A stretch of DNA of 61,421 nucleotides from a virus (Duplodnaviria; Caudoviricetes). The stretch covers positions 1-61,421 of the IMG/VR virus record IMGVR_UViG_3300017752_003321; one strand, given 5' to 3'. This document shows positions 23,090 to 56,996 of this stretch, in pieces. Within the stretch, counting starts at the first letter, position 1. Each line of letters begins with the position of its first letter. The notes under the pieces were generated by a model that had not been told where the DNA came from, made no database searches, and saw only the letters and a list, made by a program, of their open reading frames with translations. The position numbers and the translations under genes are program-made.

Positions 23090-23090
23090 T

Positions 23091-27420: not shown

Positions 27421-27768
27421 ATGGACGAAGCACTAGAAAAAGCATTAGATTTTTCTAATTTTACCGCAACTCTTAATGCACAAAAACGTATATTACATGA
27501 AAAGTATCTTGACGAGCTTGTAATGTACTCCGATAATGGCAAATTTACAATTACCAAAGAACTTCTAAATTTTGTTTTCATGCTTAGTAAGGGCGGTATA
27601 GAGAAAACAGTCATAGTTGATGATAACTATACACCAATACAAATAGACAGTGTTGTTGACTTTGTGTCAAAAGCAATGCAACAATATACAGATGCAACTA
27701 ACAAGTACTTAGACGAATATAAAGCTCTAAGCACCAAGCGTAGTGTAGAAGGTTTAGTTGATGTCTAA
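27421..27768 (+). CDS. hypothetical protein, first gene of the enzyme operon
   Basis: 115 aa with strong SD. Overlaps the next gene. Confidence 0.75.
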   Translation: MDEALEKALDFSNFTATLNAQKRILHEKYLDELVMYSDNGKFTITKELLNFVFMLSKGGIEKTVIVDDNYTPIQIDSVVDFVSKAMQQYTDATNKYLDEYKALSTKRSVEGLVDV

Positions 27769-28585
27769 TGGTGTACTATGCTTCGCACATAATAACGGAA
27801 AAATAGACTATTTAAAGCAAGCAGAATTCCTTGCAAAGCGTGTAAAACAACATTTAAATCTTCCAACTACCTTAGTTACGTCTACGCCACAAAGTCTTAA
27901 CAGCAATAAAGTATTTGATCAAGTAATTAAAATAGCAGATGATAATAGTAACGTAAAGCGTTATTATAATGGCTCTCTACATCACCAAAGATTATTATTT
28001 AAAAATAACGACAGAGTAAAAAGTTATGAATTATCTCCTTATGATACTACACTTGTCCTTGATACAGATTACATAATTTGTAACGATGTATTTAAAAATG
28101 CATTTAATAACTTACATAGTTTTCAAATATATAAAAAAGGAATTGATTTGTGTAGTTGGCGTAAGCATAAAGAATTTGATTATATTAATAATACTGGTAT
28201 TCCTTTTTATTGGGCAACTTGCTTTTGTTTTACAAAAACACAAGAAACAAAAATATTCTTTGACCTGTTGAAACACTTAGTAGATAATTGGAAACATTAC
28301 GAACAAGTATATAATTTAGGAAGCAGAAACTTTAGAAACGATCATGTGTTTAGTATTGCTATACATATAATGAACGGATTCAAAGACGATAATTGGGCAA
28401 AGACTTTACCGGGTAAGATGTTTTATACATTAGATAGGGATATTGTCAAAGCTATCAAAGATGATTGTATTACATTCTTAATACAAAAAGAAAAATATGT
28501 AGGAGAATATATTTTAGCATCAACAAAAGACTGTAATGTACATGTCATGAATAAGTTTAGTTTGGGAGAACTTATAAATGGATAA
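27761..28585 (+). CDS. GT-A fold glycosyltransferase-like protein (GT8/mannosyltransferase-like)
   Basis: ATG 27761. YELSPYDTTLVLDTDY contains the DxD motif. Paralogue of the next gene. Confidence 0.7.
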   Translation: MSNGVLCFAHNNGKIDYLKQAEFLAKRVKQHLNLPTTLVTSTPQSLNSNKVFDQVIKIADDNSNVKRYYNGSLHHQRLLFKNNDRVKSYELSPYDTTLVLDTDYIICNDVFKNAFNNLHSFQIYKKGIDLCSWRKHKEFDYINNTGIPFYWATCFCFTKTQETKIFFDLLKHLVDNWKHYEQVYNLGSRNFRNDHVFSIAIHIMNGFKDDNWAKTLPGKMFYTLDRDIVKAIKDDCITFLIQKEKYVGEYILASTKDCNVHVMNKFSLGELING

Positions 28586-29375
28586 GGGATATATTATGGT
28601 AGCTATGGGTGATGACTATGTGCGTCAAGCATATTTGTGTGCATTGAGTATAAAGAAAACACAATCAATTAAAAATGTGTCAATAGTAACAAGTGACATA
28701 GTTCCAGAAGAATATAAAAGTGTGTTTGATAAAATTATAGAAGTACCGTGGCATGACAAACACTCACAAAGTTTTTATAAAACAGAACACAGATGGAAAG
28801 TATTTCATTTAACTCCATATGATGAAACAGTTGTACTAGACACTGATATGATATTTTTATCAGATGTTTCGCATTGGTGGAAATACTTTGCAGAAAAAAG
28901 TATAGGCTTTGTAAGCAAAGTAAGTGATTATCGAGGTAATATTATTACAAATGATTTCTATAGAAAAGCATTTACAGCAAATAATTTACCTAATATATAT
29001 TGTGCCTTTCATTATTTTAAAAAAGATGACACAGCATTAGATTATTATAAAGTATTAAATAGAGTGTGTGAGAACTTTGAAAAATATTATCAAGTATATG
29101 TTCCTAAGCAAAGTCCTAAATTAAGTAGTATGGATGTAAATCATGCTGTTGCATTACTTGATTGCAATATACAAGACTACAATATTAATTCTGCATCTTT
29201 TACACATATGAAAAGTAAAGTACAAGGATGGGATAACCCAACCGATACTTGGACTGATACTGTGCCATATTATATTAGTGACGAATTAAAAGTTGGCAAT
29301 TATAAACAGCATGGAATTTTTCACTATACAGAAAATAGTTTTTGCGAGGAGATGTTATGCAACATGTTAAAATAG
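28578..29375 (+). CDS. GT-A fold glycosyltransferase-like protein (GT8/mannosyltransferase-like)
   Basis: KGYIMVA.G..Y...A..CALSIK, FHLTPYDETVVLDTDMIF (DxD), C-terminal FHY. Confidence 0.72.
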   Translation: MDKGYIMVAMGDDYVRQAYLCALSIKKTQSIKNVSIVTSDIVPEEYKSVFDKIIEVPWHDKHSQSFYKTEHRWKVFHLTPYDETVVLDTDMIFLSDVSHWWKYFAEKSIGFVSKVSDYRGNIITNDFYRKAFTANNLPNIYCAFHYFKKDDTALDYYKVLNRVCENFEKYYQVYVPKQSPKLSSMDVNHAVALLDCNIQDYNINSASFTHMKSKVQGWDNPTDTWTDTVPYYISDELKVGNYKQHGIFHYTENSFCEEMLCNMLK

Positions 29376-29896
29376 ATACTCCGCAGTATGTTTGTTTTAA
29401 TCAAAAGACTGGTGAAATTTTTAGTATTGGACCTAGCATAGAAGAAGGATATCAGTATTTTGAGGTTACCGAAGAAGAGATTGAACCTATAAAAACTTTT
29501 AAAGCAAACATGACTGACTATGTTGTAGCGTATAACAGGACTGATAAAGCATTTGTTCTTAAAAAGAATATTTATATTGAACACACAGAACAATTTACAG
29601 AAATTATGCCTGCAGATGAATCTGCTATGTATGATTTACTTTTAACGGTTGACAAAAAGTCTAAAAGATGTTATATTAGTACAGGTATTGAATTATTAGA
29701 TACAATGAAAACAACAAATGTAGATCTTCAAAAAGAGATTACTTTTAGTTTTACAAAGAAAGGTGATCCGCACATATTGTATGATATGGCTACATTTAAT
29801 ATTGCTGACCCTAAAGAACAGATGATTAACATTAAAGATGCATATAGTATCTATGCAAGTAGTGATATGGCAACTTGTATGTATAAGGAGTTATAA
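29357..29896 (+). CDS. hypothetical protein
   Basis: ATG 29357 follows SD GAGGAG, preferred over TTG 29342. Coupled to the next gene. Confidence 0.7.
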   Translation: MQHVKIDTPQYVCFNQKTGEIFSIGPSIEEGYQYFEVTEEEIEPIKTFKANMTDYVVAYNRTDKAFVLKKNIYIEHTEQFTEIMPADESAMYDLLLTVDKKSKRCYISTGIELLDTMKTTNVDLQKEITFSFTKKGDPHILYDMATFNIADPKEQMINIKDAYSIYASSDMATCMYKEL

Positions 29897-30816
29897 TGAA
29901 AGTAAAAATTGCAGAAGTAGATATAATTTATTTAAGTTATGATGAACCAAATGCTGATAAAAATTATGCAGACCTATTAACAAAAGTTCCTTGGGCAAAA
30001 CGTGTACACGGTGTAGAAGGTTCAGATGCCGCACATAAAGCGTGTGCTAAATTAAGCGAAACAGAGCGTTTTATTACAGTAGACGGTGACAATACTATAC
30101 GTCAAGACTTTATTAATCAAGTGTTAGATTTTGATGAACACACAGACTTAGAGCATAGTGTAATTAGTTGGTGTGGCAAAAATGCTATTAATGGATTACT
30201 GTATGGAAATGGCGGATTAAAATGTTGGCCAAAGCAGTATGTTTTAGATATGAAAACACATGAAAATGCTGATCCTGATAATAAACAAGCACAAGTTGAT
30301 TTCTGTTGGGACTTACAATATATTCAACAAAATAGTTGTTATTCAGATGTTCATAATAATGAAACACCGCATCAAGCATGGCGAGCTGGATTTAGAGAAG
30401 GCGTAAAAATGGCACTTGATCGCGGAGTGAAGCCAACTAAAGAAGAATTTCTAAACGGTCATTGGAAAAATTTACATAGACTATGGATTTGGTTAATGGT
30501 TGGTGCAGATGTTAAAAACGGTAGTTGGGCAATATTAGGAGCCAGAGAAGGACTTGCTATGACAATGCTTAGTGATTGGGATTATGTGAATGTAAGAGAT
30601 TTTGAATACTTAAATGATTTGTGGGGCGGAAGAGATGAAATGCCTGCAGATGTGTTGCATGATGAAATTTATAATTACGGCGGTCAGTTAATAAATGACT
30701 TAGATGCTCCTATTGCTATTCAACCTTTCAATGAAGAACAAAGTCAATTTTTTAAAACTGTTTATCAAAATCCAAGCAGAGGTGGCAATCAACAGTTCAT
30801 TGATAAGGAAAATTAA
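29896..30816 (+). CDS. glycosyltransferase-like protein (GT2-like, DxD)
   Basis: DIIYLSYDEPNA, RVHGV.G...AH.A.A, FITVDGD, YGNGGLK, AWRAGFREG.K. Paralogue of 32176-32856. Confidence 0.65.
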   Translation: MKVKIAEVDIIYLSYDEPNADKNYADLLTKVPWAKRVHGVEGSDAAHKACAKLSETERFITVDGDNTIRQDFINQVLDFDEHTDLEHSVISWCGKNAINGLLYGNGGLKCWPKQYVLDMKTHENADPDNKQAQVDFCWDLQYIQQNSCYSDVHNNETPHQAWRAGFREGVKMALDRGVKPTKEEFLNGHWKNLHRLWIWLMVGADVKNGSWAILGAREGLAMTMLSDWDYVNVRDFEYLNDLWGGRDEMPADVLHDEIYNYGGQLINDLDAPIAIQPFNEEQSQFFKTVYQNPSRGGNQQFIDKEN

Positions 30817-32183
30817 TGATCAAAGGTGAACCAATTGAAGTTAAGGAAAAACTAGATAAAGTTGGTTGCGGCTTTTGTCTTGCAAAATGGACACAAGTTA
30901 CAATACATCTCGGCACGGGTATAAATCATAGTTGTCATCATGTTAGAGCTCATAGGATAGATCTAAATGAACTTGCTAAAAATCCTAATGCACTTCATAA
31001 TACTGGATTTAAGAAAAATGTTAGAAAGCAAATGCTCAATAACGAACGTCCTAACGAATGTGATTACTGTTGGCGTATTGAGGATAACACTGACAAATTT
31101 AGTGATAGGGTTTACAAAAGTGCTGATGAATTCAGTTGGAGCGATTATGATGCTATTAGTAACTTTAAAGGTGATGAAGATTTTTATCCTCGTTATGTTG
31201 AAATAAGTTTTAGTAATGTTTGTAACTTTAAATGTGCTTATTGCGGACCAGCGTTTAGTAGTAAGTGGACAGAAGAAGTAAAACAAAATGGACCATATGA
31301 TTTAAACACTTGGTCATACAATATGATTGATCCTAATGAAACTCCTATTCCGGAGCGTGAAGACAATCCATATATCGAAGCATTTTGGAAATGGTTTCCA
31401 GAAGCAGTAAAACATATGCACACTTTTCGCATTACAGGCGGAGAGCCTTTATTAAGCAAACATACTCAGCGTGTAATAGATTATCTTATTGAAAATCCGC
31501 AACCTCAATTACAGTTTGCTATAAACAGTAATGCATGTCCACCTAAAGATTTATGGGTGAAGTTTACAAAATCAATTAAAAAGTTAGAAGATTCAAATGC
31601 AATAAAAGAATTCTGTTTGTACACAAGTGCAGAAAGTACAGGCCCACAAGCAGAATATAGTAGATTTGGTATGGATTGGAATTTGTTTACAGATAATATA
31701 GAATATTTTGCTAGGAATACTAGCAGTAAGATTAGTTTTATGAGTGCATTTAATATATACAGTCTGCCTACATTTAAAAGTTTCTTAGTTTATATTTTAT
31801 ATCTCAAGTCAACATATTTTGGCAGACATAAAGGAAATCAACGGATACTAATTGATATTCCTTATGTTCGTAATCCTTCATTCTTAGATGTTAAAATTGC
31901 AAATGAACAAGTAGTTGATGACTATCTTAAACCTGCACTTACATTTATGAAGCAAAATACAGACCATCATGGTTTTAAAGAAGTAGAAACTGCAAAATTA
32001 GAACGCATTGTTTCTGATGTTGAACACAGGCTTACTAATAAAGACGACTTTTGGAAAGAACAGCAAGAAGCTCAAAAAATGTTTTTTATGTTTACAAAAC
32101 AATATGACAAAAGAAGAGATATAAACTTTGTAAAAATTTTTCCTGAGTACGAACAATTTTTGGAGATTTGTAAACATGTATGA
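30816..32183 (+). CDS. radical SAM protein with N-terminal Twitch/SPASM-like Cys domain (family A)
   Basis: CNFKCAYC and ITGGEPL. N-terminal FCLAKW..SCHH..ECDYCW. Confidence 0.9.
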   Translation: MIKGEPIEVKEKLDKVGCGFCLAKWTQVTIHLGTGINHSCHHVRAHRIDLNELAKNPNALHNTGFKKNVRKQMLNNERPNECDYCWRIEDNTDKFSDRVYKSADEFSWSDYDAISNFKGDEDFYPRYVEISFSNVCNFKCAYCGPAFSSKWTEEVKQNGPYDLNTWSYNMIDPNETPIPEREDNPYIEAFWKWFPEAVKHMHTFRITGGEPLLSKHTQRVIDYLIENPQPQLQFAINSNACPPKDLWVKFTKSIKKLEDSNAIKEFCLYTSAESTGPQAEYSRFGMDWNLFTDNIEYFARNTSSKISFMSAFNIYSLPTFKSFLVYILYLKSTYFGRHKGNQRILIDIPYVRNPSFLDVKIANEQVVDDYLKPALTFMKQNTDHHGFKEVETAKLERIVSDVEHRLTNKDDFWKEQQEAQKMFFMFTKQYDKRRDINFVKIFPEYEQFLEICKHV

Positions 32184-32856
32184 TATTGTTTTTATAAGCT
32201 ATCACGAACCTAATGCAGAAGAAAATTTTAATGATCTTTATACAAGATACAATACTGTTGGAGTATTTGGTGATAGAGTAAAACGTGTAAAAGATGTTAA
32301 AGGCATTCACAACGCTCATGTAGAAGCGGCCAAACTTGCAAACACAAGTTACTTTTATGTAGTAGATGGTGACGCAAAGGTCGTACAAGACTTCAAATTT
32401 GCTCATACAGCAGAGGAAACAGATGTAGTGCATGTTTATCGTAGTTCAAATCCTATTAACAATTTAACATATGGATATGGCGGAATAAAGTTGTTGCCAA
32501 CTACACTTACACTTAATATGGATACAACTACTAATGATATGACCACAAGCATTAGTGATAAGTTTAAGGTTATGAATGAAGTAAGTAATATAACAGCATT
32601 TAACACTGATGCGTTTAGTACTTGGAAGAGTGCATTTAGAGAATGTGCAAAACTAAGCAGTAAAACTATTAAAGGACAAAAAAATGATGAAACAGAAAAA
32701 AGACTACACATTTGGACAACAGTTGGAGGAGATGTTCCCTTCGGCAAGTACGCTATTGCAGGTGCTGTTGCTGGCAGGGACTTTGGGCTTTCTAGCGAGT
32801 CTGATCTTCAGTTGATAAACAATTTTGATTGGTTAAAGGAACAGTTCGATGATTAA
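32176..32856 (+). CDS. glycosyltransferase-like protein (GT2-like, DxD)
   Basis: DIVFISY.EPNA, VKGIHNAH..AA, FYVVDGD, YGYGGIK, TWKSAFRECAKL. Confidence 0.65.
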   Translation: MYDIVFISYHEPNAEENFNDLYTRYNTVGVFGDRVKRVKDVKGIHNAHVEAAKLANTSYFYVVDGDAKVVQDFKFAHTAEETDVVHVYRSSNPINNLTYGYGGIKLLPTTLTLNMDTTTNDMTTSISDKFKVMNEVSNITAFNTDAFSTWKSAFRECAKLSSKTIKGQKNDETEKRLHIWTTVGGDVPFGKYAIAGAVAGRDFGLSSESDLQLINNFDWLKEQFDD

Positions 32857-33538
32857 ATGGAAAGATGATAATGATATATTTGGTAGAATGCTTATCCTGA
32901 CGAATAATCCATTATTTAATAATCTTCGGAATGCTGTTGACAACCACAATGCTGATCTTAGCGATGCTCTTAGTTGGGGACAATTAAAAAGCAAAAGATG
33001 GCTAGTAGATGAATTAGAAAAGATAGATTTGCCATTAGGAACTATATTTTTATGTGCAGGCTGGTATGCTACACTTGCTAGTATGTTATTTGCAAGTAAA
33101 TGTAGTGTAACTAAAATACGTAGTTTTGATATAGATGATAACTGTGCAACTATTGCAGAAACAGTTAACAGGAATAACACAAAAAACGAATGGAGGTTCA
33201 AAGCATCTACAGCAGATATACATAATATAGAATACACAGATTATACGTATAAAACAAAACGATTTGACGGAACAGTATGCGAGATTACAGACACTGCTGA
33301 AACTGTAATTAATACAAGTTGTGAACACATAGTAGACTTTAATAAATGGTATTCAAAAATTCCTAATCAAACTATTGTTGTGCTTCAAAGTAATAACTAT
33401 TTTGAAATTGACGATCATATTAATTGTTCAAAAAATATTTTAGAATTTGCTGAGCAGACACCGATGACTGATTGTTTATACAGTGGTGTATTAGAATTAC
33501 CTAAATATACAAGATTTATGAGAATAGGAGTAAAGTGA
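32849..33538 (+). CDS. class I SAM-dependent methyltransferase-like protein
   Basis: Motif-I-like IFLCAGWYA, acidic IRSFDID, and VINTSCEH Rossmann pattern. Confidence 0.65.
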   Translation: MIKWKDDNDIFGRMLILTNNPLFNNLRNAVDNHNADLSDALSWGQLKSKRWLVDELEKIDLPLGTIFLCAGWYATLASMLFASKCSVTKIRSFDIDDNCATIAETVNRNNTKNEWRFKASTADIHNIEYTDYTYKTKRFDGTVCEITDTAETVINTSCEHIVDFNKWYSKIPNQTIVVLQSNNYFEIDDHINCSKNILEFAEQTPMTDCLYSGVLELPKYTRFMRIGVK

Positions 33539-34084
33539 ATGCAAAAAGTTATACATGAGACACACTTATCTAAAATAGTTCATGATCTTGATAAAAATAT
33601 TCTGATTAAAACACTCAAAAAAAGAGATATTCACCGAGCATGGTTTGACCTTTATCAGAAACTACAAGAAAAAACTCCTAATGTTGTAAAAATATTTGAT
33701 ATGATAGATAAACGTACCTACACGATGGAATATTTAGATCACATAATTGATAACTTTGATGACTTTACAAAACCACCTAGGGTATTTCCTCCTGAAAAAA
33801 AGTTAACTAAGTTAGACTTTTTAAGACTTCATAAGTGTATAAACAGCGTGTGGACATCAGCATTTGAATTAAGTCTAGATTTACCAGATCATGAATTTTT
33901 TACAAATAACGATGCCAAGTTAGCTAATATATGCATACTCAAACATAAGAGCGGATATCAATTCAAGTATATAGATGCAGATGGATGGTCAACAACTAAC
34001 GGTTATCATAGCATAGATTGTTATTATCAAACACAATTAAAAATAGCATTACAAATGCAGAGGATTTTAGTTCCTAATGTATAG
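33539..34084 (+). CDS. protein-kinase-like fold phosphotransferase
   Basis: ILIK (VAIK-like), VVKIF..YTMEYL hinge, NNDAKLANI (catalytic-loop-like), YIDAD (DFG-like). Confidence 0.55.
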   Translation: MQKVIHETHLSKIVHDLDKNILIKTLKKRDIHRAWFDLYQKLQEKTPNVVKIFDMIDKRTYTMEYLDHIIDNFDDFTKPPRVFPPEKKLTKLDFLRLHKCINSVWTSAFELSLDLPDHEFFTNNDAKLANICILKHKSGYQFKYIDADGWSTTNGYHSIDCYYQTQLKIALQMQRILVPNV

Positions 34085-35153
34085 ATACCAAGATATAAAA
34101 ACAATACATCTTGAAGTCACTCAAAACTGTCAAGCGGCTTGTCCTATGTGCGATCGTAATTGCAATGGTGAAGGAGTCAATCCACACATAAAACTTGATG
34201 AACTTACATTAGAAGATTGTAAACGTATTTTTTCGCCTACGTTTATTGCACAACTAGATACAATGTATATGTGCGGTAACTTAGGAGATCCTATAGTTGC
34301 ACGAGATACATTAGAAATATTCCGCTATTTTAGAAAACATAATTCGCAAATGTGGTTAAGTATGAATACAAACGCAGGAGCAAGAGATGAAACATGGTGG
34401 GCAAACTTGGCCGAAATCTTTGGAAGGATGGGGTCTGTTATTTTTAGCGTGGACGGTCTTTCCGATACTAATCATTTATATCGTCAAGGTGTTGTATGGA
34501 ATAATGTAGAACGTAGCATGGATGCTTTTATAGAAGCTGGCGGTAGAGCACGTTGGGACTTTTTAATATTTGAACATAATCAACATCAAGTTGAAGAAGC
34601 AAAAGCACTAAGCGAACAAAAAGGTTTTGAAAAATTTACTGCTAAAAAGACTGGACGCTTTATTACTACTAACAGTGATAAGAAAGAATCTCATCAAGCA
34701 GTAGATAAAAAAGGTAACGAAACTACAGAGCTTAAAAAGCCAGATGCAAAATATCAAAACAAGGCATTACAGAAGCAAGATGTTATTATTAACAAATATG
34801 GTAGTATGGATGCTTATTATGATGCCGCACCTATTGTATGTAAAGTAAAAAAGGATAATAGTTTATTCATCACAGCCGAAGGACTAGCCATGCCATGTTG
34901 TTGGACAGCTGGACGTATGTACAAATGGTGGAACAAAGATCCTTATGTAGAACAGATATGGGAACATATTGATATTGCAGGAGGCAAAGATGCCATCAAT
35001 GCAAAAAAAGGTTTGCGAGAAGTATTTGATACAGGAATATTTGATACAATTCAGCGTAGTTGGAAGTATGAAAGTTGTAATTTAGGAAAACTTAAAGTTT
35101 GCGCCATGAAGTGCGGAGCAGAGTTCGATCCGTATGCTGAGCAATTTAGATAA
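34077..35153 (+). CDS. radical SAM protein with C-terminal Twitch/SPASM-like domain (family B)
   Basis: CQAACPMC, CGNLGDP, VDG..DTNHLYR, FEHN.HQ, PCCW...CAMKC. Confidence 0.9.
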   Translation: MYRYQDIKTIHLEVTQNCQAACPMCDRNCNGEGVNPHIKLDELTLEDCKRIFSPTFIAQLDTMYMCGNLGDPIVARDTLEIFRYFRKHNSQMWLSMNTNAGARDETWWANLAEIFGRMGSVIFSVDGLSDTNHLYRQGVVWNNVERSMDAFIEAGGRARWDFLIFEHNQHQVEEAKALSEQKGFEKFTAKKTGRFITTNSDKKESHQAVDKKGNETTELKKPDAKYQNKALQKQDVIINKYGSMDAYYDAAPIVCKVKKDNSLFITAEGLAMPCCWTAGRMYKWWNKDPYVEQIWEHIDIAGGKDAINAKKGLREVFDTGIFDTIQRSWKYESCNLGKLKVCAMKCGAEFDPYAEQFR

Positions 35154-35169
35154 GATAAGTAAGTATATA

Positions 35170-42362: not shown

Positions 42363-42367
42363 TAACT

Positions 42368-44767: not shown

Positions 44768-44772
44768 ATAAG

Positions 44773-44801
44773 TATTTACACAAATGCATAGGCGGTAAAT
44801 A
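44773..44801. promoter_or_regulatory. divergent pair of TAAATA late-type promoters
   Basis: Minus-strand TAAATA (44773-44778) is 5 nt from GTG 44767. Plus-strand TAAATA (44796-44801) is 5 nt from ATG 44807. Neither has an SD. Confidence 0.65.
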
Positions 44802-44806
44802 TACTT

Positions 44807-47510: not shown

Positions 47511-48166
47511 TGACTAAAGAACTAATTAGAAAATTTGATATTGGATTAGATATAAAAAAGTTACAACAAGACTTTAATAATTTATTACCACAGATGGAGG
47601 AAATTGGCTGGTGGGGAGCAGAAGGTGCAACACACCAATTTCAATTTGCTGTTCAATCTAAGTTCGGTAGTAATAATCCTTATCACGAATGTTGCGGACC
47701 ACAGCCTAGTTTAAATAAAGAGGATGGCTCTAATCCTCTAAACGAAGGTAGTTTTAACATAATCAACGATATGTTTATAGGCACATATTTTGAGGATGTT
47801 ATTAGCAAGTTTCCAATTGATGTTACACGAGTTAGAATATTAAAACTTAAAGGAAAGAGTTGTTATAGACTACATAGAGACATGACATATAAATTTCATA
47901 TTCCTATTATAACAAATCCTAGTAATTTATTCTTCTTTCCAGAACAACATCATAGGTATGTAATTCATTTACCTGCTGACGGAAGTATATATTACACTGA
48001 TACTTCAGAGCCACATACATTTTTGAATGGAGGAACTAAGGACAGATATCATATTGTGTTAAGTAGCACTATCGACAAAGATATACTTTTGAATGACTTT
48101 ACAAAGGAGTTAGATTTTACAAGAGATCATTTTCCATCTCTTGATAAAAACGGCGAATGGATATAG
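47510..48166 (+). CDS. aspartyl/asparaginyl beta-hydroxylase-like 2OG-Fe(II) oxygenase
   Basis: ATG 47510 (TAATG overlap, SD GGAGG). RVRIL.L...YRLHRD..FHIPIITNP, DTSEPHTF.NGG...RYHIV. Confidence 0.75.
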   Translation: MTKELIRKFDIGLDIKKLQQDFNNLLPQMEEIGWWGAEGATHQFQFAVQSKFGSNNPYHECCGPQPSLNKEDGSNPLNEGSFNIINDMFIGTYFEDVISKFPIDVTRVRILKLKGKSCYRLHRDMTYKFHIPIITNPSNLFFFPEQHHRYVIHLPADGSIYYTDTSEPHTFLNGGTKDRYHIVLSSTIDKDILLNDFTKELDFTRDHFPSLDKNGEWI

Positions 48167-49602: not shown

Positions 49603-51151
49603 AAGTTTAACGATACCTAAAGGTCAAGATATTGTAATAGCAAATATACCTAGTATTGAACTTAGACCTCCTATTGGACCAGCACGAATTAAATCTTTTA
49701 TTAAGAGTAAAGGAATGTCCTGCTATTGTATAGATCTAAATTTAGACTTATGGCATAGATTAAAAAAAGATAAAGAATATTTTCAAAGTGACGAAGATAG
49801 GTTTTGGGAAGGGTCAGATAAATGGCAACTATGGCAAGATCCTATTATGTTCGAAGACTTTTATGACGTTACTTTAGAAGCTATTGTAGACGAATGGGTA
49901 GCATTGATTGCAGAAGCTAATCCAAGATTCTTTGGTATAAGTGTACATTTCCTACGTAGTCAATTAACTGCTAAGAAGTTATTAACTAAACTTAAAGAAG
50001 TAGCACCTCATATACCGACAGTGTTAGGCGGAAGTGCCGCTGAGCATTTTGGTTTAGAATTAGGGTGGGATATACTGGACTGGATTGTAGTTGGAGAAGG
50101 AGAGCATGGTGTTGAAAGTTTATTAAACGGAACACTAGCAAGCGGAGTTTATAATAAAGATACATATGACCCTGAATGGAAACTAGAAGCACCTAGAACC
50201 CCAAAAGTAGATTTATCTAAAATAAACTATCCAGACTATACTGATTTTCAATTTTCGCAATATCCAAAAGATGCGTATGAAGTAGCAGAAAATACATTAG
50301 GTGTTGCTAGTTTGTTTATTGAAGGAACACGTAGTTGTATCTTTGATTGTAAGTTTTGTAACGTAAGAGGAGAATTTGGAGTTTATAGAGCAAGGCCCGG
50401 AGAAGATGTTGCCAAAGAAATAATTTATTATTATGAAACATATGGCGTTGCTGATTTTGTTTTTGTAGATAATATTGTAAACGGTGTATTAAAACAAATG
50501 AATCAAATGGTTGATACACTTATAGATTACCAAGAAAAGAATAATATAAAATTTGCCTGGAGTGCATACTTTGCTGTAAGGGCAAAAAAACAAATGCCAC
50601 CTGAGATGTGGGATAGATTAAGGCAAAGTGGCTTACATCATATCAAGTTAGGTATTGAAAGCGGAAGCACTGATACTTTGAAAGAGATGGATAAAAAGTA
50701 TACTAAAGAAGATTTGTTATATACTATGGAGCAATGTCATCGTTTGAATATTACTACAAGAAGTATGTATTTTGTAGGATATCCTACAGAAAGTGAAGAG
50801 GAATTTTTAGATACTTTAGATACTATAGAAAAACTTAAACCATATGACGAAATATTAAAACCATTATATATTGGAGTACTAATGCGAGTAAAACCTAATA
50901 CTAGGGCTAAGACAGATTATACACTGGCAGGATATCTAAAAAAAGACAAACGCTTTCCGAATAATTTTCCATATAGAATGTACTGGGTATATGATAATGG
51001 TAAAGTTTTTAATGATCTTCCAACACGTATAGATAGGCACAAGCGTTTAGCAAAAAAATGTATAGACCTAGGGTTTAAGTATTTTGATGATCCCTTACAA
51101 TATGAAATAGGTAAACTAGAAGAAAATTGTAACAAATACGTTAGTACATAA
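49592..51151 (+). CDS. cobalamin-binding radical SAM protein
   Basis: PPIG.A.IKS, VLGG, VVGEGE B12 domain, then GTRSCIFDCKFC, LGIESGS, FVGYPTE. Confidence 0.88.
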   Translation: MQYKSLTIPKGQDIVIANIPSIELRPPIGPARIKSFIKSKGMSCYCIDLNLDLWHRLKKDKEYFQSDEDRFWEGSDKWQLWQDPIMFEDFYDVTLEAIVDEWVALIAEANPRFFGISVHFLRSQLTAKKLLTKLKEVAPHIPTVLGGSAAEHFGLELGWDILDWIVVGEGEHGVESLLNGTLASGVYNKDTYDPEWKLEAPRTPKVDLSKINYPDYTDFQFSQYPKDAYEVAENTLGVASLFIEGTRSCIFDCKFCNVRGEFGVYRARPGEDVAKEIIYYYETYGVADFVFVDNIVNGVLKQMNQMVDTLIDYQEKNNIKFAWSAYFAVRAKKQMPPEMWDRLRQSGLHHIKLGIESGSTDTLKEMDKKYTKEDLLYTMEQCHRLNITTRSMYFVGYPTESEEEFLDTLDTIEKLKPYDEILKPLYIGVLMRVKPNTRAKTDYTLAGYLKKDKRFPNNFPYRMYWVYDNGKVFNDLPTRIDRHKRLAKKCIDLGFKYFDDPLQYEIGKLEENCNKYVST

Positions 51152-51524
51152 TTTTACTTAACCATTCATCTCGACCATCTGTGGGTTTGCCATTTTCAAA
51201 TCTCCAATTAAGATTATTATGCATTTTTCTTAATTTGTCTTGTGCAAACCAATGGGCCATAAATGAAGCTAATGATTGAGGTGTCCACTTTGTCTTATAA
51301 GGTTGTGGCTCCCAATTAGAATAAATTATATCGTCCATTACAATATTTTCATATTTAGACAATTCTTCTACATAGCATCCAAAGAAAATAAATTTCCCTA
51401 CATATGAAGGTGCTTCAGAAGCTGTCAAAACAATACAATCAATATAGTGTGGATATACTGTATCTAAGAAGTTTGCCTTTGCTTCTTTGTTAGGTACTAC
51501 AACAATATTTTTTATGTTACACAG
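51141..51524 (-). CDS. hypothetical protein with probable non-canonical (CTG) start
   Basis: Open frame fills the gap downstream of 51517. The in-frame codon with the usual 8-nt overlap geometry is CTG at 51524-51522. Confidence 0.5.
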   Translation of the reverse strand: MCNIKNIVVVPNKEAKANFLDTVYPHYIDCIVLTASEAPSYVGKFIFFGCYVEELSKYENIVMDDIIYSNWEPQPYKTKWTPQSLASFMAHWFAQDKLRKMHNNLNWRFENGKPTDGRDEWLSKIMY

Positions 51525-52500
51525 TTTTAATGCCGAGTCCACTTTTTGGATACCTCCATGGAATGTTTGTAAGATCTTTGTACATTTCTTTATATAAGTT
51601 TTTTTTGCCTTTATACTCACTAGGCATATTAGTACATATATCAATAAATTCGTTTTCAGCAAACGGATGAACCCATTTATATCCATCCATGCCATAATTA
51701 AATAATCTGTATGCACCCTCATCTTGTAGTCTACTAAACATAACTCTATTTAATATATCAGGATGATTATCCCACTGTGCAAATCTCATGTTAAAATGCT
51801 CAACACATTCTTTATAGATAGGGTCATTGCTAAGAGGTAACACACTATTATTTCGTCTATAGCTACCGCACACATTAACATGCCAATGTGCTAAGTCTTT
51901 AGGCTGGTAACCGTTCATAGCAGTATATTGTAAACTTTGATTAATTTGCATTTCACCGGTTCCTATTTCACCAGTAAAAATTACATGCTCAGTAAGACCT
52001 AAATTTTCTAAAGCCATACGTTTTGCAGTATAAGGATTTTCTATCCAATACGGAAAATTAGTCTTTGGTATAGTGTCTAATTTATAATACTCTACCTTTA
52101 TATCTAGTTCTTTTTCTATTTGTTCAACAACATATTTTTCAGTAGTATTTGAAACGCTAGAATATAAACTTACAGCAGTAAACGGAATATCAAGGGTTTT
52201 GAATATATGTGCTAGTGCAGTGCTATCTTTGCCTCCTGATAAGAATATGACGTTATTATTGGTGGCATATTGCTTTACAGTTGTTTCTATAATGCTTCTT
52301 AAATCTTTGGGTGTAGCTGTATTAATTTGCTTCTTAGGCAGTACTAGTGACGCTGTATGACGCTTTAAACCAGCCACAGGATGCCTTGCACTTACTGTCC
52401 AACCTCCTAACATATCTCTTTCTGTAAAGAAGTCTTGATTAGTTTGGCCTTCGCCTAAATCAAATTTACAAGAAAAGTAATCAATGTTGTTTAAGTTCAT
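51517..52500 (-). CDS. asparagine synthetase C-terminal-like (PP-loop) ATP-dependent ligase
   Basis: IFLSGGKDST PP-loop, IFTGEIG.GE, HPF....F...MP..YK.KK, and RYPKSG end. No full glutaminase domain. Confidence 0.72.
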   Translation of the reverse strand: MNLNNIDYFSCKFDLGEGQTNQDFFTERDMLGGWTVSARHPVAGLKRHTASLVLPKKQINTATPKDLRSIIETTVKQYATNNNVIFLSGGKDSTALAHIFKTLDIPFTAVSLYSSVSNTTEKYVVEQIEKELDIKVEYYKLDTIPKTNFPYWIENPYTAKRMALENLGLTEHVIFTGEIGTGEMQINQSLQYTAMNGYQPKDLAHWHVNVCGSYRRNNSVLPLSNDPIYKECVEHFNMRFAQWDNHPDILNRVMFSRLQDEGAYRLFNYGMDGYKWVHPFAENEFIDICTNMPSEYKGKKNLYKEMYKDLTNIPWRYPKSGLGIKTV

Positions 52501-52963
52501 AATCTAGTTCTTTCATTACATAACAATTAGGACCGAATTCCATACCTTCGTCGAAGAAGTTACTTGTTTTTACAAATCCGTATTTTACGTATGCAGGTAA
52601 TGCTTCTTCTCTTGGAACGCTCCATATAGAAATACATTTTTCTTTCATTGCTTGTCCTTCAAGTTCACAAAATAATATTCCTGCTATTCCTTTTTTCCTA
52701 TATAGAGGATCAACCCATATACCTCTAGATCTATAAACTTGTTCATCTGTTCTATGTCCGCTGTTAACGCCTATAATTTTATTAGCATTATTATAAACAG
52801 CAAAGAATGTCGGAGAATACAAGTTATAGATATCCATATTATATCCGCCTTTATACAACATACTGCTCATAGGCTTAATAGGACTGTTTCTTCCTCTCCA
52901 AAGTTTTTCCTGCCATACTGGTAATATATCTTGGAACGAAACTAATTCTGATCTATATTTCAT
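52481..52963 (-). CDS. GNAT family acetyltransferase
   Basis: IIGVNSG, RGIWVDPLYRKKGIA acetyl-CoA motif, ALPAY.KYGF. Confidence 0.85.
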   Translation of the reverse strand: MKYRSELVSFQDILPVWQEKLWRGRNSPIKPMSSMLYKGGYNMDIYNLYSPTFFAVYNNANKIIGVNSGHRTDEQVYRSRGIWVDPLYRKKGIAGILFCELEGQAMKEKCISIWSVPREEALPAYVKYGFVKTSNFFDEGMEFGPNCYVMKELDYELKQH

Positions 52964-53604
52964 TTTTGCTGTAAACTTCTAATTACTGATTTATAGTTTT
53001 CTGTTGTCAATGGAATATTTAGAACACATTGTACACTGTTGTCTACATAAGAAAAGACACTGTGTCGCTTTCGAGTGTTAATAAAATATGGTCTACCTGG
53101 TTCTAGTGTAACTACTTTATCTTCGTATACAAAAGCAAATTCATTTTTATTACAATTATGACAAAGTGTAATAATTCTAAAACATGTAACATCTAATATC
53201 TTACCATCTCTGTGTGGAGGGAAAAATCCGCCTTGATTTAAGCGTATAAAATGAGAACGTCCTAGAGTATCAAATGTATCTAAAAGCGGCTGTATGACGC
53301 TTAAATTGCTTGCTACAGGTGTTTTAACGTTAATGTCTACTTCAGATATTTCTGTACCATTCTGCTTGTTGTACTCGAACAAGCTATCAAGATCTGGCAC
53401 ACCACTAAGTCCGCCGTCTAAACTGGTTATACTTAACCCTTGTCTATTATTTGGTTTACGGGGATTATATTGTTTCCAATCATTATCAAACAAAGATAAT
53501 TCATTTTTAAGTTTCTTTATATCAATAGTAAAGTCTAGAGGAACTATGTCCCCTAAACTTGAAAGATGTAATATTAAATCCCTATTAGTCGATTGTTTTT
53601 TCAT
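52960..53604 (-). CDS. aspartyl/asparaginyl beta-hydroxylase-like 2OG-Fe(II) oxygenase
   Basis: GRSHFIRL..GGFFPPHRD (HxD), EPGRPYFINT.KRHSVFS. Confidence 0.75.
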   Translation of the reverse strand: MKKQSTNRDLILHLSSLGDIVPLDFTIDIKKLKNELSLFDNDWKQYNPRKPNNRQGLSITSLDGGLSGVPDLDSLFEYNKQNGTEISEVDINVKTPVASNLSVIQPLLDTFDTLGRSHFIRLNQGGFFPPHRDGKILDVTCFRIITLCHNCNKNEFAFVYEDKVVTLEPGRPYFINTRKRHSVFSYVDNSVQCVLNIPLTTENYKSVIRSLQQK

Positions 53605-54610
53605 CTACGTATTCAGCAGTTGACCATTCCATTTTGTCTTTAGCAAAATCAACAAGCAACTTCAGTCTTTCTTTTGTAACGTAGCTATACAATGAATCCA
53701 TAATTATATTTGACTCTTCACCAAAGTACATAGGATAATCGCCAAGTTTGGAAATCAGATATTCTCTACTTTCTTTATTAGCCATCATATTTTCAAATGC
53801 TTGTACTACTTCATTTGAATTTGCACCTGGATGCATAAACAGTCCTTTTTGCAATCCATCACGCCATACTGCTGATAAGATGTATGCTTCGTAAATATCA
53901 CCTGATGGTTCTTTATTAAATGTTTTCTTGTAAAGATCTACTACTGTAGGTGTATCTGGCCAGTTATAATCTTGGACAAAACCGTTATCAGGAGTAAACA
54001 TTCCGTGATTGAATAATCTTACTGCTTCTCCATCTTCTACCATAGGAGCAGTATTCTTAATATGTCTTGAAGCTGGCTCTCTAATATATGTAAAGTCACC
54101 TCTTAGCCAAGCCTGTTTCGCATCACCTGCACTCATCTTTCTTACAAAGTTAATATTGTTCCAACCTTTAAGCAAAGTCCAGCCTAGTGTTTCAGGTACA
54201 CAACCTGAACAGTCTGCTAAATTAAGTACATCATTTTGCCAGTCGTAATCACTAGCAATAGTTGTTGTAATATTATATGGTTGAATTAAGATCGGTTCCC
54301 AATCTTTAAAACTCCATTTTACATTTTCGATTAACCATGCATTAGCATTGCCGCCATGTGCAAGTAAAATAACCTTAGGATCGTTTTTATATTTGGTATT
54401 GAAAGTTTCTAAACCAACATTACCTTTACCGCCCTTAATATTTTCTACAATTACTTTTTCGCCTAAGTATTTTTCTAGCTCAGACGCAACAACATCGGCC
54501 CAAATTGCAGTACCTGTTCCTTTAGGGCTAGGAACAACTAATCTATAATCGGCCATCGCCGAGGTTGCCGTTAGAATTAATCCTACAACCAATGTTAACA
54601 TATGTTTCAT
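53585..54610 (-). CDS. tctC: tripartite tricarboxylate transporter substrate-binding protein (TctC/Bug family)
   Basis: Signal peptide (MKHML...SAMA/DY), LVVP..GTGT..WA..VA..L.K.LGE.V.VEN..G..G. Coupled to tctA. Confidence 0.75.
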   Translation of the reverse strand: MKHMLTLVVGLILTATSAMADYRLVVPSPKGTGTAIWADVVASELEKYLGEKVIVENIKGGKGNVGLETFNTKYKNDPKVILLAHGGNANAWLIENVKWSFKDWEPILIQPYNITTTIASDYDWQNDVLNLADCSGCVPETLGWTLLKGWNNINFVRKMSAGDAKQAWLRGDFTYIREPASRHIKNTAPMVEDGEAVRLFNHGMFTPDNGFVQDYNWPDTPTVVDLYKKTFNKEPSGDIYEAYILSAVWRDGLQKGLFMHPGANSNEVVQAFENMMANKESREYLISKLGDYPMYFGEESNIIMDSLYSYVTKERLKLLVDFAKDKMEWSTAEYVDEKTID

Positions 54611-56043
54611 TTATAACTCCTATTTGTTTCAACATATTTTAGACCGGCAACAATAGTTACTAGTGTTAACACGAACAATACGATAGTAATTGGACGTTCT
54701 ATCAACGTAGTTATATTGTACAACGACATTGTTTGATAACTCAATGCTTCAATCTTAGCAAATAAGATAAAAGCTAACAATATCGCTGGTCTATTTAATT
54801 CAAGGCGCTTAGATGTTAATCCAATCGCCGCACATACTACTAAAGTAGCAATATCATAATATGTATGCGATATTTGATAACATGACCAACCAATTAATAA
54901 TAATATCAAAGGCGCATACACTTTTACTGGAATCCTTAAAAGTAAAGTAATAGGCTTACTCAACAACAAACAACTAATGCCTACCAAAACAGTACCTCCT
55001 AAAAATCCTATTGTAAGATATTTATAGAACTCACTATCTTGTTGAATTGAAACTGAACCCAAGTCAAAATGTAGCAAGTAAAATAAACTTAATATGACAG
55101 CAGTAAACGGTGTACCTGGTATACCAAATACTACTGTCGGAACAAAACTAGCGGCCGTGACAGCATTATTTGCACCTTCTGGTCCTACTACTCCTGCTAT
55201 GTTTCCGTTGCCGAATTTTCTTTTAGGTAAACTAAATTTAGTTTGTGCATAACTAAGCCAATCAGCAACTATGCCGTGTACTCCTGGCAGAGCACCAACT
55301 AATGCTCCTATCATTCCTCCACGTAGACTTATGAACCAATATTTTTTCCAAGCCAAGATACCTAGCACTACTTGCCTCCAGCTTGAGTTTAATTTTTGTA
55401 ATTGGTTATTTTTTAAAAACATATCAACTATTTCTGGAACAGCAAATAATCCACTCACAAGAATGAGTACATTAATACCATCTTCTAGATATGTGTAACC
55501 AAATGTAAGTCTAGGTGCATTATTCTCATCAATACCTATATAACCTAATAAGAATCCTAATAAGATACTTACTATTCCTAGTCTAATATTTCCTTTTACT
55601 AAAAATACAACACAAGTAAGAGCTAATATATTAAGCATTAATAATTCAGGAATGCCAAAAATTAAAAGTAGTTTACCATAAATTGGCATTAACAAGAAAA
55701 CAAGCGAACCAAATAGCAATCCGTTTATCGTACTACTTGTAAAAGCGGCACTTAAAGCGTAGGTTGCTTTTCCTTTTTTCGCTAGAGGATATCCGTCTAG
55801 CACCGTTGCCGCACTAGAACTACTTCCAGGAATACCAAGCAATATGCTACTCCATGTATCTCCTGTGGCACAAGCCGCGACCATTGCTGTGTAAAAAGCT
55901 ACACCTAAATAAGGATCGCTATAAAAATAAGGGAAAAATACGTAACTAGTAAGTAGTGCGGTTGTAGGACCAGCTGTTGGAATTACACCAAATGCAAGTC
56001 CCCAAGCTACTCCTAACGATACAAATATAAAAACTTCAAACAT
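54607..56043 (-). CDS. tctA: tripartite tricarboxylate transporter large permease TctA
   Basis: Highly hydrophobic. G.IP..G, LLGIPG..SSAAT.LDGYPLAKKG, GALPG, GVVGPEGANNA, FGIPG TctA signatures. Confidence 0.9.
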   Translation of the reverse strand: MFEVFIFVSLGVAWGLAFGVIPTAGPTTALLTSYVFFPYFYSDPYLGVAFYTAMVAACATGDTWSSILLGIPGSSSSAATVLDGYPLAKKGKATYALSAAFTSSTINGLLFGSLVFLLMPIYGKLLLIFGIPELLMLNILALTCVVFLVKGNIRLGIVSILLGFLLGYIGIDENNAPRLTFGYTYLEDGINVLILVSGLFAVPEIVDMFLKNNQLQKLNSSWRQVVLGILAWKKYWFISLRGGMIGALVGALPGVHGIVADWLSYAQTKFSLPKRKFGNGNIAGVVGPEGANNAVTAASFVPTVVFGIPGTPFTAVILSLFYLLHFDLGSVSIQQDSEFYKYLTIGFLGGTVLVGISCLLLSKPITLLLRIPVKVYAPLILLLIGWSCYQISHTYYDIATLVVCAAIGLTSKRLELNRPAILLAFILFAKIEALSYQTMSLYNITTLIERPITIVLFVLTLVTIVAGLKYVETNRSYK

Positions 56044-56048
56044 AACTT

Positions 56049-56077
56049 ATTATACAACAAATTTAATTAAAAGTCAA
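56049..56077 (-). promoter_or_regulatory. sigma70 promoter, probably leaderless, for the tctA operon
   Basis: Minus strand TTGACT (56077-56072), N17, TATAAT (56054-56049), 5 nt, then ATG 56043. Confidence 0.8.
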
Positions 56078-56996
56078 GTAATTCTGTATAATTTACAAAG
56101 CCACAAAAGCCTTTTTTAACTAATGTAAACAATTCTCTGTCGTAATGTTTATACATATTCTCTTCCATTTCGTCATAAATTTCCTGGTAAAAGTTATCAT
56201 TTGGATGAAAATGATCTGTTTTTTCTTTATAGATAAGCTCGGGCCATTCGGAGTTTTTCATAGACATAGTATTACAAACACCTTTGTTTTGTTTTCCATA
56301 ACTTAATAAAGGGTGTGTAATTTGACTTTTAATCAAAGGTAGTGTGCTATTAAAAAAAGTATATTGTCCTTCTCTTTGAGTATGTTTTGCCCATAGCCAC
56401 CAAACAATTTCTGTAGGCGGACAAGGAATGATAATGTCTGTATCCCAATCTTTGCCTATACAATTCTCCATAGTGACACGATAGATGTGTCCGTCCTTTT
56501 CCAGTTCGCCTAGGCCGCCCACAATAAATTGATCTTGTGGTATCTTATCAAACAGCCCTAACGTAATTAAAAAACCTCTACTCATATTGCCTAGCATTAC
56601 ACTATACTTTTTCATACGTTCTAAACATTCAGAACGATCAGCAGTATATTCTACCCAGTCGTATTCGAGTTCGTTTGCTATCTGTTTACTTTTAGTACGA
56701 TGTGTGTCGTTTGCCCAAGGATAATGTTCGTAATATATTGTAGCATCTTTTCCTAGTATCTTAGCACAACGGGCAATAATTTCACTGTCGCTACCACTTA
56801 CTGGAATAGCTAAATTGTTAGGAAGTAATTTTGCGGCATTTAAACATTCTTGTCTGAAGCTATCACAATCTACATCTAAAGGAGCAATTTTGTAATTAAA
56901 TTTTTTTAAAGGAATGTTTTTGTCTAGATAAGATTTAAAATCAGCATACGGTGAATCGTTCACTGACCAATAGATATGTTTAGGTACTTCTAACAT
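56067..56996 (-). CDS. adenine nucleotide alpha-hydrolase-like (degenerate PP-loop) protein
   Basis: LAIPVSGSDSEII resembles the SGGxDS loop. The rest is not recognisable. Confidence 0.5.
   Translation of the reverse strand: MLEVPKHIYWSVNDSPYADFKSYLDKNIPLKKFNYKIAPLDVDCDSFRQECLNAAKLLPNNLAIPVSGSDSEIIARCAKILGKDATIYYEHYPWANDTHRTKSKQIANELEYDWVEYTADRSECLERMKKYSVMLGNMSRGFLITLGLFDKIPQDQFIVGGLGELEKDGHIYRVTMENCIGKDWDTDIIIPCPPTEIVWWLWAKHTQREGQYTFFNSTLPLIKSQITHPLLSYGKQNKGVCNTMSMKNSEWPELIYKEKTDHFHPNDNFYQEIYDEMEENMYKHYDRELFTLVKKGFCGFVNYTELLDF

Follow-up and report, generated by a model that had tools for sequence, protein, structure and literature searches.

A radical SAM-rich gene island between tail-fibre genes of a phage fragment, with a core also found in Bdellovibrionota

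What does an uncultured marine giant phage do with twelve radical S-adenosylmethionine (SAM) enzymes encoded in one block beside its tail fibres? The question is raised by IMG/VR virus record IMGVR_UViG_3300017752_003321, which we analysed in its entirety (61,421 nt, hereafter the window) and which its gene content, including an endolysin-like domain, baseplate wedge proteins and tail-fibre-like proteins matched in PHROG, identifies as a phage fragment. Positions 27421-56996, here called the island, hold 32 open reading frames (ORFs, g01 to g32), 24 on the plus strand and 8 on the minus strand, nearly all of which overlap by 1-41 nt or lie less than 46 nt apart. An earlier note, made from the letters alone, had described about 33 tightly coupled genes; the tight packing is borne out, the count is 32, and one fixed 33-gene line is not what we find. 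To our knowledge, twelve of these oxygen-sensitive enzymes in one phage island go far beyond any characterised phage pathway. Our tentative answer, to which we give a probability of roughly 0.3, is that the island encodes a soluble cytoplasmic pathway building or editing an unusual sugar decoration, for which the fibre or baseplate of the virion would be the likeliest acceptor.

Radical SAM enzymes and their transferase partners

The motif CX3CX2C is present in 12 of the 32 ORFs and in none of the other 20. All twelve proteins match PF04055 (Radical_SAM) at E <= 3.3e-5, ten of them above its curated cut-off of 29.5 bits and two below it (g06, 28.2 bits; g11, 24.6 bits); with motif and match in every case, the twelve radical SAM proteins of the earlier note stand. 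Catalytic motifs, whose widespread loss the note had named as a warning sign, are preserved across the island. By paralogy the twelve fall into four groups, namely families A, B and C and a cobalamin-type group. The radical SAM genes of the left and middle parts, and the transferase genes among them, are as follows.

29896-30816, plus strand: g05, putative GT-A-like protein, paralogue of g07 (E 7e-27)
30816-32183, plus strand: g06, family A radical SAM, NF033640
32176-32856, plus strand: g07, predicted GT-A-fold transferase, core
32849-33538, plus strand: g08, class I SAM-methyltransferase fold, core
34077-41720, plus strand: g10-g16, radical SAM array (by Pfam, NCBIfam and paralogy), CX3CX2C in seven of seven; family B g10, g11, g12 and g16, family A g13 and g15, family C g14
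42368-43483, plus strand: g18, core radical SAM (PF04055, 51.7 bits)

Family A (g06, g13 and g15) has an N-terminal auxiliary, or twitch, domain. Its three members pass the 170-bit cut-off of NF033640 (N_Twi_rSAM), with 417.2 bits for g13, 301.6 for g06 and 198.6 for g15, and the other nine radical SAM proteins score 33-59 bits or do not match. In g13, an invariant CxxC at residues 91/94 and more upstream cysteines lie ahead of C147/C151/C154. Family B carries C-terminal auxiliary cysteines; PF13186 (SPASM) is matched above threshold by g16 (32.4 bits), below it by g11 (17.2 bits), and not by g10 or g12. Family C comprises g14 and g18, neither of which reaches the 180-bit cut-off of the viperin family NF038283 (44.6 and 39.1 bits, respectively). 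In the cobalamin-type group, g21 and g25 have PF02310 ahead of PF04055 (39.1 and 37.3 bits), and g24 matches PF04055 without a PF02310 match and has sub-threshold matches to NCBIfam cobalamin (B12) radical SAM families. The best NCBIfam matches of these right-hand enzymes are all below cut-off, that of g25 being to a C-methyltransferase family for RiPPs, peptides made by ribosomes and altered after translation (116 bits). Sequence searches of the PDB with g10, g13 and g18 returned generic radical SAM enzymes only (SkfB, PqqE, viperin, anSME), none better than E 5e-4. Ralstonia phage RsoM2USA has a single gene in common, gp202, 36% identical to g06; when compared by profile with the g05/g07 family, the neighbouring gp203 and gp201 gave no significant match (E 0.3-0.4).

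Judged by its AlphaFold2 (AF2) model (pLDDT 87), g07 is a GT-A-fold transferase for which sugar transfer is predicted. Its Foldseek matches in the PDB are all GT-A glycosyltransferases (best E 1e-4), including the PBCV-1 capsid glycosyltransferase and polypeptide GalNAc-transferases, and its viral structure matches reach TM scores of 0.81-0.83 to domains of phage proteins of 804-1076 aa and include the mycobacteriophage Che8 glycosyltransferase. D64 and D66 of a DGD motif are invariant across g07/g05 relatives, which are often domains of proteins of 520-1220 aa; there are 1925 longer relatives, and the few Pfam-labelled ones carry GT2 (glycosyltransferase family 2). The four glycosyltransferases of the earlier note thus differ in standing: g07 holds by fold, g05 as its paralogue and g03 by Atlas leads (GT8 or nucleotide-diphospho-sugar transferase, 0.95-0.99), and g02 is a weak paralogue of g03 (E 4e-9). 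The methyltransferase claimed there is confirmed by the fold of g08 (AF2 pLDDT 83; structure matches to methyltransferases at E 2e-7; an Atlas methyltransferase lead as well). Neither the g07 and g08 families nor g20 had a match in profile or sequence searches of the PDB, and the same holds for the 515 N-terminal residues of the fused relative in locus L002; g02, g03, g04, g09, g20, g26, g29, g30 and g32 found no support in Pfam at E <= 5.

Genuineness, conservation and bacterial counterpart

The earlier note had asked whether the block could be a misassembled host fragment. This is excluded, because independent contigs carry both junctions and composition is even, with a GC content of 29-39% along the whole window and no step at the island. 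From g21 to g32, gene order is unchanged in a near-identical strain (L033/L121, 90-100% protein identity), which also carries the Mtd_N fibre gene on the right and genes beyond it; on an independent contig, a 91% homologue of this fibre-like gene (57025) directly adjoins g32. In an 87%-related phage (L001/L028), a homologue (81%) of the ORF at 26472 sits ahead of g01-g16 and g18 in the same order, and some 27 kb downstream the island ends with a 76% homologue of the Mtd_N fibre gene. Of the sampled words of 34077-43483, 99-100% were contained in each of sixteen DNA runs, which came from at least 12 coded studies of seawater or viral metagenomes. Cultured phages gave no megablast match to the island. 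The closest cultured baseplate wedge is that of Salicola phage SCTP-2 (37%), followed by Rak2-type phages and Atu_ph07 (range 33-37%), and since CheckV puts the completeness of 170-kb related contigs in IMG/VR at 48%, full genomes of about 350 kb are expected for this phage group.

A scan of IMG/VR with g13 gave 30 loci at 52-87% identity, and 33 related loci were compared in all. Within 10 kb on either side of g13, which is itself present in 30 of 30, we found g10 in 27 loci, g07 and g08 in 20 each (two of the 20 for g07 being cut by the locus end) and g18 in 13, the latter at 80-83% identity in the phage relatives. The five-gene core g07, g08, g10, g13 and g18 therefore recurs across related jumbo-phage contigs, as the earlier note had asked of a real pathway. 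Each 21-kb related locus has 4-11 radical-SAM-like ORFs, so that a high density of these genes is a trait of the lineage. In the databases g13 has 2868 relatives at E <= 1e-5, and the best 120 of them are all at least 78% identical and lie on contigs of up to 353 kb.

Around this core the island varies. Genes g01-g04 occur in only 2 of the 33 loci (L001/L028), and g09, g19 and g20 in none. In L122 the stretch g21-g31 is found again as one unit (55-83%); its g21-g25 part is colinear there at 55-76% and in L033/L121 at 98-100%, and in L032 a part with g21, TctA, TctC, g29, GNAT, PP-loop and g26 recurs on one strand. Homologues of g32 (90-92% identical) are found in L033/L121 only. The island is thus a mosaic of the five-gene core, the separately recurring g21-g31 module and lineage-specific genes, and one fixed line of genes does not describe it. 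Related islands have accessory genes of their own, including 27 PP-loop ORFs in 16 loci. A tryptophan halogenase (L016:717-2189, minus strand, 239 bits) and an AMP-binding enzyme (L009:448-1509, minus strand, 67 bits) are also seen among them, and neither has a counterpart in the window. At least 22 related loci have a conserved 74-aa ORF with a variable C-terminus after their g08 homologue (e.g. L002:4330-4554); it is absent from the window, where the unrelated g09 takes its place, and from the bacterial clusters described below. The island genes outside the core and the array are listed here.

27421-29896, plus strand: g01-g04, left end, lineage-specific, with the GT8-like pair g02/g03
33539-34084, plus strand: g09, window-specific, kinase-like motif by eye only
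41717-42322, plus strand: g17, possibly nitroreductase-like (PF00881, E 0.05, most of the domain)
43480-44130, plus strand: g19, Asp/Asn-hydroxylase-like (PF05118, 22.0 bits, just under cut-off)
44111-44767, minus strand: g20, window-specific, sulfotransferase-like motif by eye only
44807-51151, plus strand: g21-g25; g21 and g25 cobalamin radical SAMs, g22 2-oxoglutarate (2OG) oxygenase, g23 hydroxylase-like, g24 cobalamin-type-like
51141-56043, minus strand: g26-g31; g26 without assignment, g27 PP-loop, g28 GNAT, g29 HxD..H protein, g30 TctC-like, g31 TctA
51141-51722, minus strand: g26, overlapping g27 by 206 nt
51517-52500, minus strand: g27, PP-loop, weak (NAD_synthase, E 0.001)
56067-56996, minus strand: g32, possible second PP-loop protein (SGSDS motif only)

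Several labels given to these genes by eye have to be softened. The kinase (g09) and sulfotransferase (g20) labels rest on motifs with no relative in the 33 loci and no Pfam match, nor, for g20, a PDB match, and the nitroreductase label rests on the sub-threshold PF00881 match of g17, relatives of which are found at 27-32% identity in six loci. Among the four HxD..H oxygenases claimed, g22 passes Pfam as a 2OG oxygenase of the P4H type, g19 and g23 have sub-threshold Asp_Arg_Hydrox matches, and g29 has the motif only. The claim of two PP-loop proteins stands in part, with the weak match of g27, and falls short for g32, which has no Pfam or NCBIfam match. The GNAT protein g28 is confirmed by Pfam. 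The transporter claim is secure for g31, a full-length TctA (PF01970, 310 bits, positions 2-423 of 423) with nine hydrophobic segments, and holds less firmly for TctC, since the ten best PDB matches of g30 are all of the TctC/Bug type and consistent but weak (E 0.008-0.4); g30 also has an N-terminal hydrophobic leader. We found no TctB next to them: g30 and g31 overlap by 4 nt, the gap between g31 and g32 is 23 nt, and there is no adjacent small hydrophobic ORF. In a phage collection, tblastn for the transporter gave only matches of 26-29% in fragmentary or unannotated records. Given the 206-nt overlap of the listed g26 ORF with g27, g26 probably begins further downstream than listed; the one hydrophobic segment of the protein falls in this doubtful N-terminal part.

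The earlier note had overlooked that the core is shared with bacterial chromosomes. Scanning one genome per prokaryotic species with an alignment of family A, we obtained 78 loci, most from metagenome-assembled genomes (MAGs) of Bdellovibrionota, and examined in detail 23 of them (g13 identity at least 51%, plus L077). A g13-like gene is present in 22 of these, a g18-like gene in 21, a g10-like gene in 20, and g05/g07-like and g08-like genes in 13 each, at identities of 38-68% (56-68% for g18) and a locus GC content of 28-57%. The Bdellovibrionota clusters are chromosomal, since they lie on contigs of 328-937 kb that also bear flagellin genes, and in related loci genes for DnaG primase and a TadA-like deaminase adjoin the cluster. 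Their neighbours include GT2 glycosyltransferases, a carbamoyltransferase, PP-loop, Asp/Asn-hydroxylase-like and thrombospondin-repeat proteins, and genes like g27, g28 or g29 stand beside the core in five loci (L048, L049, L077, L102 and L109). In five Bdellovibrionota genomes the flagellin genes were not adjacent to the cluster, and TctA was not found with the query used. An orthologue-level match (54-63% identity) was present in 15 of 301 sampled Bdellovibrionota genomes, four of the 15 being already-known holders. A GT-A gene paired with a family A radical SAM gene is seen repeatedly, in the phages, in Bdellovibrionota, in a Legionellales MAG and in a Haliscomenobacter MAG; the g05/g06-type pair recurs in L114, L084 and L081.

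In a g13 tree from a quick search only, all phage rows fall in one clade (SH-aLRT 99), together with six rows whose MAGs bear the labels of other phyla. The tree suggests, and only suggests, that the phage clade is nested among Bdellovibrionota orthologues, with 83-89% support for the nesting branches. MAG contigs resembling this phage group (L039-L041, L062, L063, L065 and L114) bear the labels Flavobacteriaceae, Crocinitomicaceae, Neisseriaceae, Gammaproteobacteria, Chloroflexota and Acidimicrobiaceae. Because their identities and gene order match those of the phage group, the other-phylum contigs are probably mis-binned phage contigs. A search of three such MAGs for the baseplate wedge found two wedge genes in one (G011/L062) and no convincing match in the genomes of L063 and L065.

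Substrate, acceptor and competing explanations

The genes around the island bear on where its product might go.

1733-5302, plus strand: baseplate wedge gene, poly-Ser/Thr/Gly tail at residues 1141-1189
5302-20376, plus strand: 5,024-aa ORF between the baseplate wedge and the fibre genes
21008-27386, plus strand: left flank, fibre genes and a Ser/Thr-rich ORF (by PHROG matches and paralogy)
26472-27386, plus strand: ORF directly left of the island, Ser+Thr 27%
57025-58158, minus strand: right flank, fibre-like gene with Mtd_N domain (PF18454, 47.6 bits) and a late-type TATAAATA promoter

The earlier note's placement of the block between fibre genes is upheld by PHROG fibre matches on the left and Mtd_N on the right, the ORF at 26472 having no match. 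The ORFs at 21008 and 24962 have PHROG tail-fibre or tail matches and the one at 23091 is their paralogue. These three (21008-26452) have in common an N-terminal region of about 300 aa (32-35% identity, E 1e-34 to 1e-38) and differ at their C-termini, as would be expected of alternative receptor-binding fibres on one attachment site. Virion proteins contain 16-27% Ser+Thr versus 11.5% for the island enzymes, and the tail of the wedge protein reaches 78% within a 40-residue window; this tail might be glycosylated, or it might serve as a flexible linker. Two side observations concern the flanks: the first 2,000 aa of the 5,024-aa ORF match, at about 29% identity, structural proteins from the virions of jumbo phages, those of the PA5oct type among them, and the ORF at 59774-61060 (minus strand) has DUF2201 metallopeptidase (141 bits) and VWA-like (58 bits) domains, which clash with its PHROG match annotated as an HNH endonuclease.

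As to expression, GTAAATA stands 26 nt ahead of the start of g01 and is similar to (T)ATAAATA, which five genes of the structural region have 18-28 nt (mostly 27-28) ahead of them. Ahead of g18 lies a sigma70-type promoter (42334-42362; TTGACA-17-TATAAT with TG, 12 of 12 matches), and ahead of tctA (g31) a sigma70-like one (56077-56049; 11 of 12 matches); in overall count, promoter-like sites are not above chance. Both promoters end 5 nt ahead of the start codons, for which reason the g18 and tctA mRNAs would be leaderless or nearly so. Contigs from three RNA-labelled libraries and one guessed to be RNA match the island at 95-100%, covering 30 (X17), 19 (X18), 7 (X19) and 6 (X20) of 30 bins of 27400-47399. 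These data are compatible with transcription of the island and are no proof of it, as DNA carry-over is possible and neither level nor strand is shown; bins without coverage carry no meaning.

We infer the sugar substrate, each individual reaction and the virion target, and put them together as follows. The GT-A-fold proteins g05 and g07 and the GT8-like g02 and g03 would attach sugars, each GT-A gene being teamed with an N-terminal-twitch radical SAM gene (g06, g13). These two radical SAMs, families B and C and the cobalamin-type enzymes (g21, g24, g25) would edit the sugar at the level of its carbons, by candidate steps such as oxidation, epimerisation, deoxygenation and C-methylation, and g08, the GNAT g28, the PP-loop g27 and the iron- and 2OG-dependent oxygenases may add further groups. 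The acceptors would be the phage's own Ser/Thr-rich fibre and baseplate proteins, encoded beside the island. A sugar product is our best guess because GT-A-fold proteins are the constant partners of the radical SAMs, relatives exist as fused multi-glycosyltransferase proteins, and the bacterial versions neighbour GT2 and carbamoyltransferase genes. The product would be made and used in the cytoplasm, for instance as a glycosylated protein, because the enzymes are soluble (28 of 32 island ORFs lack a hydrophobic segment) and no flippase, polymerase or lipid-carrier transferase was recognised among them. A virion acceptor is the most economical, because fibre genes flank the island, a late-type motif precedes g01 and the virion proteins are rich in Ser and Thr. 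For a sugar-directed function of any kind we would accept about even odds; this part of the glycan-tailoring claim is the best-supported guess, and attachment of the glycan to virion proteins, the other part, stays conjectural.

A number of observations weigh against sugar editing for the virion. No nucleotide-sugar synthesis gene was recognised in Pfam and NCBIfam scans of the window, and the PDB searches with g10, g13 and g18 placed no island radical SAM near a characterised sugar-modifying enzyme; their weak neighbours are mostly peptide maturases (SkfB, PqqE and mycofactocin maturase). SPASM/twitch enzymes and oxygenases of the Asp/Asn-hydroxylase and P4H types often act on peptides or proteins, and the 74-aa ORF of the relatives could be a peptide partner. 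The PDB fold matches of g07 have modest TM scores, 0.4-0.48 (0.33-0.48 by query for the top ones). TctA and TctC suggest an imported carboxylate or other small molecule, the sigma70-type promoters suggest that part of the island is read early by host polymerase, and the core is also found in bacteria, which have no virion.

Some of these points lead to other explanations. The same sugar editing might instead serve the envelope of the infected cell, through lipopolysaccharide, capsule or another glycoconjugate, and could block superinfection or alter the cell surface. We hold this to be rather unlikely. It accords with the promoters ahead of g18 and tctA, which fit early expression, with the GT8-like genes, with a chromosomal core in bacteria, where a cell-surface product would be natural, and with the host O-chain modification proposed, in the accessible part of PMC7029224, for the glycosyltransferases of pelagimyophage host recognition clusters, which are likewise fibre-linked hypervariable islands. 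Yet family scans of the 32 ORFs recognised no flippase, polymerase, ligase or lipid-carrier transferase, the proteins are as free of hydrophobic segments as described above, and the five Bdellovibrionota genomes have no exporter of the Wzx or ABC-2 type close to the cluster, the nearest on the same contig being 500 kb away. Alternatively, the radical SAMs and oxygenases would act on protein or peptide, either cross-linking, epimerising, methylating or hydroxylating the fibres or carrying out a RiPP-like maturation, with sugar added afterwards as in glycosylated RiPP-derived products. The peptide maturases among the below-cut-off neighbours, with the g25 match as the strongest case, point this way, as do the P4H-type g22, the Asp/Asn-hydroxylase-like g19 and g23, the 74-aa ORF and the AMP-binding and halogenase genes of related islands. 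But all these family scores are far under their cut-offs, the 74-aa ORF is missing from the window and from Bdellovibrionota clusters that retain the core, no other small ORF is conserved, Pfam and NCBIfam recognise no PqqD or RRE domain in the 32 ORFs, and it is GT-A genes, not a peptide, that constantly accompany the radical SAMs; we regard this explanation, like the previous one, as rather unlikely. A classic RiPP cluster is ruled out, there being no precursor gene beside the maturases in the window.

A small-molecule pathway, chiefly of g21-g31, would take up a carboxylate through TctC/TctA and turn it into an antibiotic- or cofactor-type compound by C-methylation (cobalamin radical SAMs), hydroxylation (2OG oxygenases), amidation or adenylation (PP-loop) and acylation (GNAT). 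The enzyme mix seems to resemble carbapenem-type tailoring sets, the module recurs as a unit in L122 and as g21 with g31-g26 in L032, it has its own sigma70-like promoter, and the TctA match is strong and the TctC-like matches consistent. We nevertheless find it a little less likely still, as no scaffold-forming enzyme was recognised, TctB is lacking, and genes like g27, g28 and g29 stand beside the GT-A/radical SAM core in the five bacterial loci without TctA and therefore look like parts of the same toolkit rather than of a separate pathway. Hypermodification of phage DNA or nucleotides, for evasion of host nucleases, seems to us very improbable. Phages do use glycosyltransferases and GNAT-type and radical SAM enzymes on DNA bases, and g14 and g18 bear a weak likeness to viperin and MoaA (39-45 bits). 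Their scores are, however, far below the viperin cut-off of 180, family scans recognised no nucleotide-metabolism or DNA-binding gene in the island, which sits in the fibre module and not the replication module, and the bacterial versions adjoin GT2 and carbamoyltransferase genes.

Returning to sugar editing, a bolder version, which we put forward as a long shot, is that an undescribed carbon-level sugar chemistry decorates the apparatus of attack of two unrelated kinds of bacterial killers, in jumbo phages the fibres and baseplate and in predatory Bdellovibrionota some surface structure, that the core was taken once from the predators, and that its variability reflects an arms race. If the radical SAMs edit sugars of virions or cell surfaces, glycobiology would gain a new radical chemistry, and there would be an explanation for a part of marine jumbo-phage genomes that is large, abundant and quick to change. 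The Bdellovibrionota core offers a second, cellular system for the same enzymes, and a phage-encoded TctC/TctA transporter is unusual in itself.

Comparison with known systems

The family closest to the island's radical SAMs is NF033640, to which g13, g06 and g15 belong by score and by a cysteine-rich domain before CX3CX2C, the other nine standing outside it; we found no characterised member. For the transferases, the glycosyltransferases of PBCV-1 and Che8 glycosylate virions. The g07 model is alike in fold to A64R of PBCV-1 (PDB 2p72) and to the Che8 enzyme, and in all these cases the genes adjoin structural genes, but identity is 12-14%, TM scores are 0.33-0.45, and those systems have no radical SAMs. 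The type of chemistry proposed is known from the aminoglycoside pathways, where BtrN, an auxiliary-cluster radical SAM, oxidises a sugar-like ring and GenK, a cobalamin radical SAM, C-methylates a sugar; no specific sequence relationship to either was detected, and both are absent from the PDB matches of g10, g13 and g18. With TctABC transporters the island has in common the full-length TctA of g31 and the TctC/Bug-like g30, and it differs from them in lacking TctB and in being phage-encoded.

A literature search, which did not cover supplements, found no paper on the radical SAM/GT-A core or its occurrence in Bdellovibrionota. Radical-SAM-rich marine myoviruses and fibre-linked hypervariable islands, by contrast, were already in print (PMC5332604; PMC7029224, each in its accessible part), which the earlier note had overlooked. 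A single radical SAM of a cyanophage is called an antibiotic-synthesis gene in the accessible part of a 2025 paper (PMC12801897). Nishimura et al. 2017 (PMC5332604) describe an environmental genome of a marine myovirus with 12 radical SAM genes, the same count as here, cited as users of Fe-S clusters; the accessible text gives no location, partners or function for them. The nearest parallel, in the portion of Zaragoza-Solas et al. 2020 open to us (PMC7029224), is the host recognition cluster of pelagimyophages and cyanomyophages, a hypervariable region that sits amid the tail-fibre genes of the structural module and encodes Mtd-domain proteins and Asp/Asn hydroxylases as well as glycosyltransferases, transport functions and cassettes of radical SAM enzymes; that portion does not analyse the radical SAM set or a bacterial counterpart. 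The pelagimyophages are T4-like, unlike the window's relatives, with genomes of about 350 kb and a wedge nearest to SCTP-2/Rak2-type jumbo phages. As in their cluster, fibre genes flank the island and gene content differs among the 33 related loci, and on this evidence from sequence the island belongs, as a variant, with the hypervariable islands that marine myoviruses carry beside their fibre genes; at its centre are an uncharacterised family of radical SAM proteins and their glycosyltransferase-fold partners.

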